From Klebsiella phage RCIP0040, in the sequence record OR532834.1: a stretch of 50,973 nucleotides of DNA. One strand, written 5' to 3'. The notes beneath the pieces are model-generated. The model was not told the origin of the DNA and made no database searches. It worked only from the letters and a program-made list of their open reading frames with translations. The translations under genes and the position numbers were made by a program. Position 1 is the first letter of the stretch, and the number at the start of each line of letters is the position of its first letter. Positions 5,465-41,688 of the stretch are shown here, one piece after another.

Positions 5465-5492
5465 TTGACCGTTTAGCAATTCGTGCTATTCT
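5465..5492 (+). promoter_or_regulatory. sigma70-like promoter (TTGACC-16-TATTCT, TGn extended -10) containing a palindromic TAGCA-n5-TGCTA box
   Basis: Read directly: -35 TTGACC, 16-nt spacer carrying the conserved box TTTAGCAATTCGTGCTATTC, then -10 TATTCT. Upstream of the capsid gene. Confidence 0.5.
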
Positions 5493-5531
5493 TCATCTCG
5501 TTAAGTCAAAACACACAAACAGGAGTTTCAA

Positions 5532-6473
5532 ATGACTATGAAATTAGATGCATTCGAGCAGAATGCAATCAAGGTTGCAATGCAGGGTATGGGCATCGAC
5601 GCTAACAAACTCGACGCGCACGGCATCTGGACTGTTAATCAGCTTACCCAACTCTTAAATCGCCAGTACGAGCAGGCTTACCCGCAAACTGGTGTGCTGG
5701 AGCTTTTCCCGGTTACTACCGAACTGAGTCCGGTAACGAAAAACTTTGAATGGCTGGAGTTTGACGGCGTGACCTCTGCGAAAATCATCGCGGATTATAC
5801 CGACGACCTGCCGACAGTTGAAGCGATGGCGTCCGAGAAAACTGGCAAAGTGTTCCGCCTGGGTAACGCGTGGTTTATCTCCATCGACGAAATCAAAGCA
5901 GGTCAGGCGCTGGGTTCCAGCCTGAGCGACCGCAAAGCGTCTCTTGCACGCGAAGGCCATGAAACCCTGGTTAACGATCTGGTGTTCAAAGGTTCCGCGC
6001 CGCATAACATCGTTAGCGTGTTCGATCAGCCGAACATTAACCGTCTGACCTCCTCACGCTGGACTACGCCGGAAATCGCATTCAGCGAGTTGCAGGATCT
6101 GATCGAGACGATCGAAGATGTAACGCTGGGTCGTCACCATGTTACCAACATCGTGATCCCGCCGTCCAAGCGCCGCCTGCTGACGCAGAAAATGCCGGAC
6201 GTTACGGAAAGTTACCTCGCGTGGTTCAAAGAGAACTACCCGAATGTCACCATCACCGCGATTGCGGAACTGGAAGATATCGACGGCGCAGGTACTAAAG
6301 GCGTGCTGGCATACGAAAAAGATCCGATGAATATGTCGATCGAGATCCCGGAACGCTTCAACATGCTGCCGATGCAGCCGAAAGACCTGCATTTCAAAGT
6401 GCCTTGCACCTCCAAATGCACTGGCCTCATCGTGTATCGTCCGCTGACTATCGCCATTCTTTCTGGCGTGTAA
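5532..6473 (+). CDS. major capsid protein
   Basis: 313 aa, strong RBS (CAGGAG), promoter upstream and a strong terminator downstream. Size and position match T1-like major capsid proteins. Confidence 0.7.
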   Translation: MTMKLDAFEQNAIKVAMQGMGIDANKLDAHGIWTVNQLTQLLNRQYEQAYPQTGVLELFPVTTELSPVTKNFEWLEFDGVTSAKIIADYTDDLPTVEAMASEKTGKVFRLGNAWFISIDEIKAGQALGSSLSDRKASLAREGHETLVNDLVFKGSAPHNIVSVFDQPNINRLTSSRWTTPEIAFSELQDLIETIEDVTLGRHHVTNIVIPPSKRRLLTQKMPDVTESYLAWFKENYPNVTITAIAELEDIDGAGTKGVLAYEKDPMNMSIEIPERFNMLPMQPKDLHFKVPCTSKCTGLIVYRPLTIAILSGV

Positions 6474-6477
6474 TTAG

Positions 6478-6505
6478 AATGGCCCTTCGGGGCCATTTTT
6501 TATTG
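6478..6505 (+). terminator. rho-independent terminator
   Basis: GGCCCTTCGGGGCC hairpin followed by TTTTTTATT. Confidence 0.7.
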
Positions 6506-6564
6506 TTGCGAAAAACCTTTCATTGTGTTTAAATCAAACCTCACCAAAACAGGAGAGATACAAA

Positions 6565-6873
6565 ATGGCTAAAAAAGATACTGCTACCATCGAACCGGAA
6601 ATCAACGAAAAGCCGGAAACCTCACAGCCGGAAACCGCGAAGCCGGATATGGTAACAATGGAAAACGTGGGCGCTTGCCTGATTAAGTTCGACGGCAAGA
6701 AAGTGCTACCTGGCGAAACCTTCGAGATCGAAGAGTCTCAAGTTGACCGCTTCCGCCACGATATCTTCAAAGGCCGCGTAGAATTCCACGATGATATTCG
6801 CCGCACTCGCGACTACATCGCAGCAGTGAAAGCGAAAGCAAAAACCATCGCGCAGCCTACGAGCGCCGAATAA
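6565..6873 (+). CDS. hypothetical structural protein (highly expressed context)
   Basis: Start re-called at the ATG preceded by AGGAGAGATACAAA. 102 aa, with a terminator-like hairpin after the stop. Confidence 0.35.
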   Translation: MAKKDTATIEPEINEKPETSQPETAKPDMVTMENVGACLIKFDGKKVLPGETFEIEESQVDRFRHDIFKGRVEFHDDIRRTRDYIAAVKAKAKTIAQPTSAE

Positions 6874-6924
6874 AAAAACCAACAAGGGCGCTACGGCGTC
6901 CTTTTTCATATCTGGAGAAAGACC

Positions 6925-7341
6925 ATGAATTACACGATTCAAGATGTGATCGACAAAATGCGCAGCCTCGCGCCGCCGCTTAAAGAAGTACCGGAAGAAC
7001 TGTTAACCGCGTGGGTGGTGCTGGCTGAGGAATTTGTATGCGCGTCTAAGTTCGGCGATTCGATCACTACAGCGTTGGCGCTGATGACCATGCACCTGAT
7101 GTTTCTGGACGGCGCAATGAAGCAGGAAGGCGAAAGCGTGGAATCATACTCGCAGCGTGTAGCGTCATTCACCCTGACCGGGGAGTTTTCCCAAACGTTC
7201 GATCGCGTGTCTTCAGCTAGTGATAACGAAATGCTATCAACTCCGTGGGGTAAAATGTACTGGCGCATGCTGAAAATGCGCGGCGGCGGCTTCGGCCTTA
7301 TGACCGCTGGCGGTCTTCATCGTTGCGTCATGGGAGGTTAA
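6925..7341 (+). CDS. head-tail connector protein (gp6-like)
   Basis: 138 aa, located between capsid and tail genes. Confidence 0.4.
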
Positions 7342-7346
7342 ACACC

Positions 7347-39752: not shown

Positions 39753-39992
39753 TTATATTTTAACCTCGTTTCGGTGGATGAAGTCGGCGACATAGTGGCA
39801 CTCGATCGGGTTTTCGATCCCGGCGAGAACCTCACAACGCCCTTTATTCAGTAGCTGGCAATGCTGGCAATCCGAGCCGCCAACATTGGCTATGACGATG
39901 GCGATCCCGTTGCATGAGCCGCCGAACATCCGATGAGGGAATGGGTAAGCCTCGCAGGTGCAAACCACCTCCCCGGCCCTCCGCTTTCTCAT
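39753..39992 (-). CDS. hypothetical Cys-rich (zinc-finger-like) protein
   Basis: Start re-called at MRKRR... (ATGA overlap); CTCE...C...CQHC...C. Confidence 0.35.
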   Translation of the reverse strand: MRKRRAGEVVCTCEAYPFPHRMFGGSCNGIAIVIANVGGSDCQHCQLLNKGRCEVLAGIENPIECHYVADFIHRNEVKI

Positions 39993-40183
39993 GCGCTCCC
40001 CTTCTCGATGCAGAAAACACAATCGCGAGCATCAACCGCGAAGCGCGCCACGCCGTCGAGAACGATGAAAACGGTCTGCCCGTTAACGCCGCGCCCTTTC
40101 TCGATATCGGTGACGGTGCGGAACAGGTCGCTTGCGCCATATTGAATTTTGTCACCGATTACGACGTCGCCAAATGCCTTCAT
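39989..40183 (-). CDS. hypothetical protein
   Basis: 64 aa, preceded by a box/stem-loop module and RBS CAGGAG. Confidence 0.4.
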   Translation of the reverse strand: MKAFGDVVIGDKIQYGASDLFRTVTDIEKGRGVNGQTVFIVLDGVARFAVDARDCVFCIEKGSA

Positions 40184-40255
40184 GGTTGCTCTCCTGATTG
40201 GTTTCGATGTGGTAATGATACCAGGCCTCGCGGCCCGGCGTTTAGCAATTTGTGC

Positions 40256-40519
40256 TTATTTGATGCCCTGTGCAATTTTATCCATTTTGCGGAACCAAAT
40301 AGCCAGTTCTTCGAGCATATCGAACAGGTCAGCTTTTTTGCTTTCCATGATGGCATCACAGATCAGGTTGATATCGCAAGCCATGACTCCGAGGTATTCA
40401 CCGTAAGCGCGTACACCTGCAATGTTAGAAGACTTGCTATCACGGCGGCATTTCTGCGCTTTGTAAATCAGGCTCATGATTTTGGAAGTTTCTTTGGTCA
40501 GGATATGTACGTTGCTCAT
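40256..40519 (-). CDS. hypothetical protein
   Basis: Start re-called at MSNVHIL... after AAAGGAAAA. Confidence 0.4.
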   Translation of the reverse strand: MSNVHILTKETSKIMSLIYKAQKCRRDSKSSNIAGVRAYGEYLGVMACDINLICDAIMESKKADLFDMLEELAIWFRKMDKIAQGIK

Positions 40520-40601
40520 GATGTTTTCCTTTTTGCTTGCTTCGTTTCGATGAATAGATAATAGCAAAAGCCCACGCGGGGCTTTTAACAAAAAGTGCTA
40601 T

Positions 40602-40931
40602 TTATACCAGGCGGAACCGAACTTCATCACCGTAAATCACGGCCTGAATGTGATCGCCAAATGTGACGGTTGCGCGAGTGGTTTGGTACTCCGTATGGCC
40701 GTATCGCCATATCCCGCGCTGGGGATAATGCGCCGCGCTTTCGTGCCAAATGTTCATAGTGAACTCACCAGACTCCCCGAACTCCAGGCACTGGCCGACC
40801 ATCGCTTTGACGGACTGGTAGTCATGCCAACGTTGAGTAGCACGATCGGTAACGCGCTCCACACGATTGCGCTCGTTGTGCTCCGCCGCAGCCTCAACCA
40901 CGGCCCACTTACTACGGGTAAAGATTCTCAT
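40602..40931 (-). CDS. hypothetical protein
   Basis: 109 aa; ATGA-coupled to the upstream gene. Confidence 0.4.
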   Translation of the reverse strand: MRIFTRSKWAVVEAAAEHNERNRVERVTDRATQRWHDYQSVKAMVGQCLEFGESGEFTMNIWHESAAHYPQRGIWRYGHTEYQTTRATVTFGDHIQAVIYGDEVRFRLV

Positions 40932-41194
40932 TGCTGGTACTCCTTTTTGATTTGGGCGCGGAACCGCGAAGCATCTTTTTCTGCCCGTTCAGCGCTGTGA
41001 TATCGTTTAAGAAACAGGGTATCAATCCCCATGCAAAGCGTTTCGTCGGCGCTGTATTTCCCCACAAGCCAAAGGCTGACCGTCTGCCTGTCCAGTCCGT
41101 AGTTCTTATCGAAGTGAACGCGCACATTCACAGGCACATAGCCATGCGTCGAAATGAATGCGTCAACGCGATCGAATAGCTCTTGCTTGTTCAT
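40928..41194 (-). CDS. hypothetical protein
   Basis: Start re-called at MNKQELF... (ATGA overlap). Confidence 0.4.
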   Translation of the reverse strand: MNKQELFDRVDAFISTHGYVPVNVRVHFDKNYGLDRQTVSLWLVGKYSADETLCMGIDTLFLKRYHSAERAEKDASRFRAQIKKEYQQ

Positions 41195-41376
41195 GGCTTC
41201 ACCTCGAAAACGAATCCGTCGCAAACGCACATATCAACCAGAAACGCGGTTGCAGCGCTGAACGTCCATTCGTCAGATCCAGGCATGCGCTTCCTGATCA
41301 CGCCGTCTTCGCCCCTCATCCATTGCACGCCAGATTCACGACTTTCGTACACAACGCCAGTTTTCATGACAGCCAC
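41191..41376 (-). CDS. hypothetical protein
   Basis: 61 aa, RBS AAGGGG. Confidence 0.35.
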   Translation of the reverse strand: MAVMKTGVVYESRESGVQWMRGEDGVIRKRMPGSDEWTFSAATAFLVDMCVCDGFVFEVKP

Positions 41377-41567
41377 CCCTTGTACTTAATAGCCTGGTTC
41401 ATCGCAGATACGATCCCGTCCTCGTTGAAAGATGATGCAACGTAAATCTCCTCTTGCACCTTGTTACCGTCCATCAAGATCACGCCGTGACGATGTGACT
41501 TAACGCGAGGGTTAGCAAGTTTGCTCGCCAGTGCCAAAAAATCTGCCTTCTTCATCATGTGCGCCAT
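41364..41567 (-). CDS. hypothetical protein
   Basis: Start re-called at MAHMMKK... after CAGGAG; first clearly supported gene of the leftward accessory operon. Confidence 0.4.
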   Translation of the reverse strand: MAHMMKKADFLALASKLANPRVKSHRHGVILMDGNKVQEEIYVASSFNEDGIVSAMNQAIKYKGWLS

Positions 41568-41688
41568 CGTGCTTACTCCTGACTGGTTGATGTGATGACT
41601 ATACCCGATCCCGCCAGCAGGGTTTTGATTATTTGTGCTATTCCTCCGATTGTCGTTTATTCCATTCATTCGGAATAGTGGAATAGTT

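Follow-up and report, generated by a model that had tools for sequence, protein, structure and literature searches.

The marbox, the DNA site of Escherichia coli MarA, follows, in the form used by the Grainger laboratory, the consensus gcannwwntgnnaaa and is non-palindromic and orientation-specific (PMC12052159). In the class II promoters of the Mar/Sox/Rob regulon, a forward marbox overlaps the −35 region with its centre between −36 and −55, and the pbpG promoter of E. coli is repressed by MarA, SoxS, or Rob through a marbox in its spacer (PMC12052159). The structure of Rob and RNA polymerase at micF places GCAC in the A site and CAAA in the B site, the latter overlapping the −35, with Rob contacts at −47G and −45A (PMC9178005); in Klebsiella pneumoniae, the RamA site at micF is centred at about −41 and reads CACT-7X-AAA (PMC8811837). 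T4-type phages carry a second related system, the intergenic promoter/stem-loop cassettes known as PeSLs, for which terminator activity and mini-circles have been demonstrated (PMC2839356, PMC4122927). Here we describe a repeated module in the genome of Klebsiella phage RCIP0040 (OR532834.1; "the window" denotes the whole stretch analysed, 50,973 bp) that bears resemblance to both systems.

Transcription control in T1-type phages is largely undescribed, and the genome papers give generic sigma70 promoters and terminators only. With a probability that we put at roughly 0.6, the modules are sigma70 promoters lacking a −35 that would be activated by host Rob, MarA, SoxS, or RamA and are fused to a hairpin attenuator and a leader.

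A rigid module at gene junctions

The window is a complete Webervirus genome (Drexlerviridae, T1-like) opened at the large terminase gene. Many Klebsiella phage records match it at 93–98% identity, and it is collinear with both Kpph1 and the less similar coliphage T1. Its small plus-strand genes at about 42–50 kb form the "early block" of an original prediction, made from this DNA alone, that had described a box/stem-loop repeat and listed ten copies beyond the block; at about 37–42 kb, small genes on the minus strand form a mirror arm. The census stands at 16 full modules, three degenerate modules, and one reversed box inside the major-head promoter. A profile hidden Markov model (HMM) built from module copies recovers all 16 full modules (E values 6e-15 to 4e-7) and the box-only copy at 5469–5491 (E = 2e-4). 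The exact 20-mer GAATAGCACGAATTGCTAAA, at up to three mismatches, occurs six times in the window against 0.01 expected, and TAGCA-N5-TGCTA five times against 0.04, so that the repeat lies far above chance frequency.

The module consists, in order, of the box AATAGCAC-N5-G(T/C/G)TAAAAC, 18 nucleotides (nt), a TATAGT-like −10 hexamer, 6 nt, a C or T followed by A, a leader of 22–35 nt that often starts (C)ATCGAAAC, GGAG, and ATG. Copies registered on the box align without gaps, and the spacer from box to −10 is 18 nt in 15 of the 16 window modules and in all T1 modules, the copy before the recE-like gene having 17 nt. Because A at position 2 and T at position 6 of the hexamer are invariant, it carries the signature of a sigma70 −10; TGn precedes it in 7 of 16 modules and GGG in six. 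The conserved A, 7 nt past the hexamer, is the predicted transcription start (+1), and the short conserved leader with its GGAG would support efficient translation.

What the modules lack is a −35. The TTGNTA within the box is ruled out as a sigma70 −35 hexamer since it lies 22 nt from the −10, which is too far, and no hexamer is found at the 17-nt position; the canonical sigma70 arrangement, TTGACA 17 ± 1 nt from the −10, is absent. Two further assignments were rejected: CCCCAT as a sigma32 element, being unconserved and part of a hairpin arm, and the box as a T4 MotA box, being in the wrong position (about −36, not −30).

All modules sit at gene junctions, and every full module is co-oriented with its downstream gene and ends in a Shine-Dalgarno sequence and start codon. 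The predicted occurrence of the repeat in both orientations thus holds relative to the genome only; relative to the gene served, the head-gene copy is the sole inverted box. The TAG of AATAGCAC (box positions 3–5) is often the stop codon of the upstream open reading frame (ORF), as for the ORFs that end at 29226, 43339, 43906, 45064, 45664, 46534, and 48147, so that coding sequence, putative activator site, hairpin, and promoter are packed without spacer. The hairpin that accompanies each box defines two classes of eight modules each: in class A, it lies within the 18-nt spacer, ends at −13, and often has a GNRA-type loop; in class B, both the −10 and the predicted start lie within it. The features are as follows.

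29222–29303, plus strand: full module before the gene for a 92-aa lipoprotein-like protein and dam; box 29222–29242, class A hairpin, −10 TAATAT 29261–29266, predicted +1 29273, ATG 29301.
30543–30620, plus strand: full module, box 30543–30563 (AACAGCACTAATTGCTAAACA), class A, −10 TATTAT 30582–30587, predicted +1 30594, ATG 30618.
43048–43126, plus strand: full module, class A, −10 TATTAT 43087–43092, predicted +1 43099, ATG 43124.
43335–43414, plus strand: full module, class B enclosing −10 TATAGT 43374–43379, predicted +1 43386, ATG 43412.
43902–43977, plus strand: full module, class B, −10 TATCAT 43941–43946, predicted +1 43953, ATG 43975.
45060–45137, plus strand: full module of the GAATT/dyad variant, class B, −10 TATAGT 45099–45104, predicted +1 45111, ATG 45135.
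45660–45735, plus strand: full module, class A, −10 CATAAT 45699–45704, predicted +1 45711, ATG 45733.
46530–46618, plus strand: full module, class B, −10 TAAAGT 46569–46574, predicted +1 46581, ATG 46616.
47321–47397, plus strand: full module of the dyad variant, class B, −10 CATACT 47360–47365, predicted +1 47372, ATG 47395.
48143–48226, plus strand: full module, near-identical to the T1 module at 3534, class B, −10 TATAGT 48182–48187, predicted +1 48194, ATG 48224.
24758–24837, minus strand: weak module before the RecE-like exonuclease gene, −10 TATACT 24799–24794, ATG 24760.
37727–37806, minus strand: full module of the dyad variant, class A, −10 TATAGT 37767–37762, predicted +1 37755, ATG 37729.
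39300–39379, minus strand: full module of the dyad variant, class B, −10 CATACT 39340–39335, predicted +1 39328, ATG 39302.
40181–40260, minus strand: full module with box ATAAGCACAAATTGCTAAACG, class A, GCGA loop, −10 TATCAT 40220–40215, predicted +1 40208, ATG 40183.
40517–40602, minus strand: full module, class A with a terminator-like hairpin (AAAAGCCC..GGGCTTTT), −10 TATTAT 40563–40558, predicted +1 40551, ATG 40519.
41565–41642, minus strand: module with an imperfect marbox (AA for TG), −10 TATAGT 41603–41598, predicted +1 41591, ATG 41567.
23660–23727, minus strand: degenerate module before the erf-like recombinase gene; marbox GCACAAATAGCTAAA with one mismatch, spacing 1 nt short, hairpin GCGCAC..GTGCGC enclosing TATAGT; profile HMM E = 0.29.
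26225–26298, minus strand: degenerate module before the primase gene; marbox GCACAATTTGACTAA with one mismatch, canonical 35 nt from G to −10 (TATGAT), hairpin and T-run that also end the gene for a helix-turn-helix (HTH) protein; profile HMM E = 0.19.
26712–26788, plus strand: degenerate module before the helicase gene, CAGCAC-TTTT-GTTAAAC, 2 nt shorter overall.

Nine of the ten copies listed in the original prediction prove real. The five on the minus strand (boxes at 37806, 39379, 40260, 40602, and 41642) and the one before the lipoprotein gene (29222–29300) were borne out as described, as was the copy at 5471–5490 within the head promoter. The minus-strand copy at 24826–24846 is genuine but weak, its box (24837–24817) having a degenerate second half (CCTTG) and its TATACT lying 1 nt closer. 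The supposedly degenerate copy at 30553–30617 exists but is not degenerate: the module begins at 30543, with a box that fits the marbox consensus without mismatch. Only the helicase copy (26720–26785) fails as a full copy and stands as a degenerate relative; one T is missing from its box and one nt from its spacer, which leaves box and −10 closer by 2 nt, and it is detected neither by the profile HMM nor by the marbox pattern at up to one mismatch. The T1 module at the equivalent position (T1 36443) is canonical. Two degenerate modules, 23727–23660 and 26295–26225 on the minus strand, before the erf-like and primase genes, are additions to that list. With all copies at gene junctions, co-oriented with the downstream gene and rigid in architecture, the proposal of a genome-wide regulatory element is well founded.

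In the gap before a 145-aa gene (36784–36909, minus strand), TAAGCACATTTTGCAAGTG matches the first half of the marbox only and is followed, further on, by a hairpin-enclosed TATCAT and a CAATCAGGAG leader; this looks like a module disrupted by an insertion.

The architecture extends well beyond the window. About 15 full modules occur in T1, their box consensus and 18-nt spacing unchanged, and one 91-nt module matches 701 phage records, all of them T1-like phages, from Klebsiella, Escherichia, Shigella, Salmonella, Citrobacter, Enterobacter, and similar Enterobacterales hosts. A scan of IMG/VR with the module pattern returned one contig.

Correspondence of the box to a marbox

Searched without mismatch, the marbox consensus has 16 matches in the window (0.89 expected), of which 15 are module boxes; in T1, 20 matches stand against 0.85 expected. 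Further matches at one mismatch are at chance level (18 observed, 18.3 expected). Across 36 boxes from the two phages, the conserved positions are GCAC, A or T only at positions 10–11, TG, pyrimidines at 15–16, and AAA, a pattern that follows the marbox profile. This conservation is asymmetric: GCAC is invariant, while its mirror at position 15 is C in only 20 of the 36 boxes. A dimeric operator would show two-fold symmetry, equal halves, and independence of orientation; here, the left half is invariant, the right half varies, and all 31 full modules (16 in the window and 15 in T1) have the box in one orientation to the −10.

The geometry corresponds as closely as the sequence. In E. coli micF, the model class II promoter of this regulon, the sequence is AGCACTGAATGTCAAAAC-18 nt-TAGAAT, and in the phage it is AGCACTTTTTGTTAAAAC-18 nt-TATAGT; from the G of GCAC to the −10, micF and 15 of the 16 window modules alike measure 35 nt. 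In all 16 window and 15 T1 modules, the 15-mer runs forward at about −47 to −33 relative to the predicted +1, as class II promoters have it. The whole box would thus extend from about −51 to −31 as a forward marbox, with GCAC at −47 to −44. Given the same sequence, orientation, and spacing as micF, the modules are therefore, as far as sequence can tell, micF-type class II promoters, and the box is a marbox and not mainly a dyad.

The consensus YAGHAWATTWTDCTR of Lrp was also compared: its half-sites fit the box and its centre does not, whereas the marbox fits every conserved position and the geometry. Two main box spacer variants occur, GCAC-TTTTT-G(T/G)TAAA (e.g., 43335) and GCAC-GAATT-GCTAAA (e.g., 45060), in addition to minor ones; both are present in the window phage and in T1, with no association with hairpin class seen. 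They might differ in their preference for Rob, MarA, or SoxS.

Head promoter, hairpins, and recombination

The copy that departs from the common orientation lies in the promoter of a late gene.

5465–5492, plus strand: major-head promoter TTGACC-16-TATTCT, its spacer filled by a reversed consensus marbox (5472–5486, minus strand, GCACGAATTGCTAAA).

This promoter combines a −35 with five of six matches, a 16-nt spacer, and a TG-extended −10 (TGCTATTCT) whose TG is supplied by the reversed marbox; the box copy here is without hairpin. The T1 major head gene has the same layout, TTGACG-16-TATTAT at T1 15069–15089, with the other box spacer variant, and this retention of the design argues that the arrangement is selected. 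Further reversed, box-only copies occur in T1 before the tape-measure chaperone gene and near the tail-fibre gene. By analogy with pbpG, the same activator that would drive the modules may repress the late head promoter through the reversed marbox in its spacer, a role with which the position of the site agrees.

Other late genes are served differently. The junctions at 50363–50440, 22405–22500 (minus strand), 8668–8696, and 9391–9470 show a classical GC-rich terminator followed by another type of promoter with no marbox: an extended −10 before terS (TGGTATACT) and before the tail-fibre gene (TGCTATTAT), and TTGCCA-17-CATAAT for the major tail gene.

A hairpin follows the box in all 16 window modules (mean z = −2.2 against dinucleotide shuffles), and all 15 T1 modules fold likewise (mean z = −3.6). 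The stems vary in sequence (GGGGT/ACCCC, GTAACG/CGTTAC, AAGGCC/GGCCTT, and others) and are constant in position, which argues for selection on structure. In RNA reading through from the upstream gene, the hairpin could act as an attenuator or 3′-end structure and so insulate each cassette; of the window hairpins, only one (40587–40565) passes a simple terminator scan. Three rho-independent terminators annotated in the T1 record (38973–39001, 39998–40024, and 41980–42007) are the spacer hairpins of marbox modules and lie between the putative activator site and the −10 of the next gene. Their annotation is thereby corrected: these "terminator" hairpins sit within promoters.

Because about 80 nt are common to some 16 sites, the modules in addition serve recombination, acting as points of homologous exchange at which the small genes between copies are deleted, inserted, or swapped. 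This use, also proposed in the original prediction, is borne out by a chimeric module and by a modest excess of breakpoints at modules. In a comparison of window positions 36–51 kb with seven Webervirus genomes, 9 of 25 distinct homology breakpoints fall within or at the edges of modules, which occupy about 8% of the region (P = 1e-4), and a further two are situated some 25 nt inside the gene downstream of a module; by junction, 8 of 13 with a module are affected and 10 of 37 others (P = 0.03). Phage RCIP0017 has a single chimeric module, its 5′ part corresponding to the window module at 43335 and its 3′ part to that at 43902, with the crossover in the shared ATCGGGGTG and the intervening 164-aa gene gone. 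The gene between modules 40602 and 40260 is swapped exactly from ATG to next box in two relatives; the box edge of module 40260 is a breakpoint in three relatives and the ATG edge of module 40602 in two.

Elsewhere, a 185-bp segment with a 59-aa ORF (49596–49781) is absent from all seven of the Webervirus genomes compared, with precise breakpoints at module-less junctions.

Activator, alternatives, and known systems

The protein proposed to read the box is a monomeric activator of the AraC/XylS type (MarA, SoxS, or Rob; RamA in Klebsiella), which would bind it and recruit sigma70 RNA polymerase in the class II manner seen at micF. When MarA was compared by phmmer with every six-frame ORF of 45 aa or more, the best E value was 0.14, and 30 window ORFs compared with Pfam yielded no HTH_18/AraC domain. 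With no protein of this type found in the phage, the activator is most likely the host's. MarA, SoxS, and RamA are inducible, and Rob is constitutive and highly expressed, with bile salts, fatty acids, or dipyridyl as its activating signals; its constitutive abundance makes Rob the first guess. On this sequence-level evidence, a host MarA-family protein is the probable activator and ranks above both a factor-independent promoter and a phage HTH protein.

Several considerations weigh against this interpretation or parts of it. Marboxes are short and degenerate in their hosts, such that resemblance alone is no proof of use, and positions counted from +1 depend on the predicted −10. T1 grows vigorously in ordinary broth without MarA or SoxS inducers, where little MarA or SoxS is present and most Rob is sequestered; strict dependence on the activator is thus not obvious. 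The seven modules with a TGn-extended −10 could fire activator-free, and a highly divergent phage protein with marbox specificity may exist. Class B hairpins are not followed by a U-run and are hence not classical terminators, and many breakpoints and indels also occur at junctions without a module. Finally, the literature searched gave no match for a link between the marbox and phage promoters, for the box sequence, or for Webervirus or Drexlerviridae promoters, the older T1 and Rtp genome papers lying outside its coverage; the repeat itself may have been noticed before.

The growth of T1 in the absence of inducers is equally what one would expect if the modules were factor-independent sigma70 promoters, in which the box serves as an UP-like or upstream element read by polymerase with the aid of the extended −10 and its likeness to a marbox has no function in vivo. 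A virulent phage has only host polymerase with which to fire its immediate-early genes, the TGn motif is present in 7 of 16 modules, and the box places T- and A-tracts at about −43 to −32. However, the invariant GCAC and TG are foreign to UP elements, six modules have GGG for TGn and no −35, and canonical sigma70 matches are only weakly above shuffled sequence (28 vs. 20.3; 26 vs. 18.2; 15 vs. 9.2). The reversed box in the head promoter would also be left without a role. We consider this explanation improbable, though the best placed of the alternatives.

Slightly less probable still is the dimeric regulator of the original prediction, which took TAGCA-n5-TGCTA as a dyad and the phage HTH protein (26295–26696) as its candidate ligand. 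In its fuller form, this Cro/YdaS-like dimer would bind TAGCA-N5-TG(C/T)TA, serving as activator at the modules, from about −42, and as repressor at both its own and the head-gene promoter. The five perfect dyads, far more than expected, speak for it, as does the right half-site TG(C/T)TA in most boxes, and the HTH protein is a core gene of the same phages: its 830 homologous records all come from T1-like phages, with enterobacterial host labels except about 20 labelled Campylobacter. Its promoter is, moreover, the strongest in the genome by consensus.

26745–26772, minus strand: HTH-gene promoter TTGTCA-16-TATAAT, the best sigma70 consensus match in the genome (11/12).

Being factor-independent, this promoter could allow the protein to be made first, and a box copy lies in the 5′ leader or divergent region of the gene in both the window phage and T1. 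The −10 overlaps the opposite-strand −10 of the helicase module (TATTAT, 26744–26749, plus strand), and the box falls in the regulator's 5′ leader; T1 keeps this face-to-face layout of HTH and helicase promoters, with TTGAAT-17-TATAAT in the same place. The box beside the HTH gene is, however, accounted for by the helicase module. Of the 17 window boxes, only 5 form perfect dyads, and the fixed orientation in 31 modules and the asymmetric conservation are at odds with a dimer, for which the marbox consensus match and micF spacing would be coincidence. The protein belongs to phrog_2856, has one weak Cro/YdaS/MerR-like HTH, and finds only weak RacA/Cro-like matches among PDB sequences. Its identity to T1 gp23 is 54%, and several residues of the putative recognition helix differ, although the two phages share one box consensus. 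An invariant box is more readily explained by a conserved host protein than by a diverging phage one.

The operators of a diverging regulator would be expected to differ between phages, as the repeats in the large gaps do. The heptamer GTAAGAT occurs in 19 copies (4 expected), ten of them in the primase–exonuclease gap (24870–25234) and four in the divergent gap between the small-gene arms (41904–42174); the family includes the perfect palindrome GTAAGATGCATCTTAC at 24880–24895 and also GTAAGATTCATCTTAC at 25133–25148. GTAAGAT is unenriched in T1, whose equivalent gap has GTGTAACAG repeats. These repeats may serve as iterons of an origin or as operators for the Cro-like protein of the phage, and the GTAAGAT-N2-ATCTTAC palindromes are a better candidate site for an HTH dimer than the box. 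The same two large noncoding gaps share a 119-nt inverted repeat, 72% complementary (25031–25149 vs. 41894–42012), each arm having an AT-rich core, (AAT)n/(ATT)n, with CTCTCTCTATCTAT on its flanks. A replication origin is one possible role, paired divergent control regions for immediate-early genes another.

Very unlikely is a primary action of box and hairpin in read-through RNA, as nut-like antitermination (boxA plus stem-loop) or a processing or stabilising signal with the promoter role secondary: the box does end the upstream ORF, with the stop inside it and a stable, often GNRA-looped hairpin next, and GCACTTTTT loosely resembles boxA GCTCTTTAACAA, but it is the −10 that keeps the exact 18-nt spacing, the hairpin differing in position between the two classes, the GAATT variant is unlike boxA, the modules have no match in Rfam, and the head-gene copy is inverted and lacks a hairpin.

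If the modules are host-activated marbox promoters, a larger scheme suggests itself, which we advance tentatively and hold to be somewhat less than an even bet. The early and replication programme of T1-like phages would be wired to the host Mar/Sox/Rob(/RamA) regulon through some 16–20 marbox promoters, with the same activator keeping the head promoter off. Titration would act as the timer: replication would yield hundreds of new marboxes and draw off the activator, such that the early promoters go down and the head promoter comes on. Such an early-to-late switch, operating by titration and without a phage regulator, is pure conjecture on our part.

The consequences of such wiring would be considerable. 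A large, therapeutically used family (Webervirus against Klebsiella, and T1-like coliphages) would depend on or sense MarA, SoxS, Rob, and RamA, the same regulators that give rise to multidrug resistance. Bile salts, salicylate, and oxidants would tune infection, as would resistance mutations in ramR or marR, giving a simple interplay between phage growth and antibiotics, bile, salicylate, and these mutations. The modules would also offer compact, portable promoter/insulator cassettes that depend on a host activator.

Among described systems, the element is a variant of the class II marbox promoter combined with a PeSL-like promoter/stem-loop cassette. With micF-type class II promoters, it shares a consensus marbox placed forward in lieu of the −35, the 35 nt from G to −10, and a sigma70-type −10, and the monomeric, orientation-dependent site of a MarA-family protein agrees with the asymmetric conservation of the phage box. 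It differs in abundance and perfection, with 16–20 copies per 50-kb virulent genome, nearly all matching the consensus perfectly where micF has one mismatch, and in its embedded hairpin, shared leader, and Shine-Dalgarno sequence; the genes driven are early and replication genes, not stress genes. The head promoter and its T1 counterpart resemble the repressed promoters of the pbpG type in that a marbox overlaps the −35/−10 spacer. The phage site is, in contrast, a perfect consensus, is reversed, and contributes the TG of the extended −10, and repression is what we infer there.

The middle promoters of T4 (MotA box) and the Pm and late promoters of Mu (Mor and C) likewise combine a sigma70 −10 with a conserved box in place of the −35 at many promoters of one temporal class. 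MotA/AsiA, Mor, and C are phage-encoded, however, and their boxes differ in sequence and position, whereas the modules here carry a site of a host regulon.

With the PeSLs of T4-type phages, the modules share an intergenic cassette of about 80–100 bp comprising an upstream stop, promoter, stem-loop, Shine-Dalgarno sequence, and start codon (PMC2839356, PMC4122927). In both, the stem-loop lies between the upstream element and the −10 or overlaps the −10, copies are concentrated among small genes of unknown function, and recombination between copies deletes or swaps genes. PeSL promoters are canonical sigma70 promoters with −35, −10, and an AT-rich upstream region, whereas the phage modules have a marbox in the place of the −35. 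PeSLs belong to T4-type phages and the modules to siphoviruses of the Drexlerviridae, and the idea of a regulatory cassette that doubles as a recombination site is thus extended from T4-like myoviruses to an unrelated siphovirus family.

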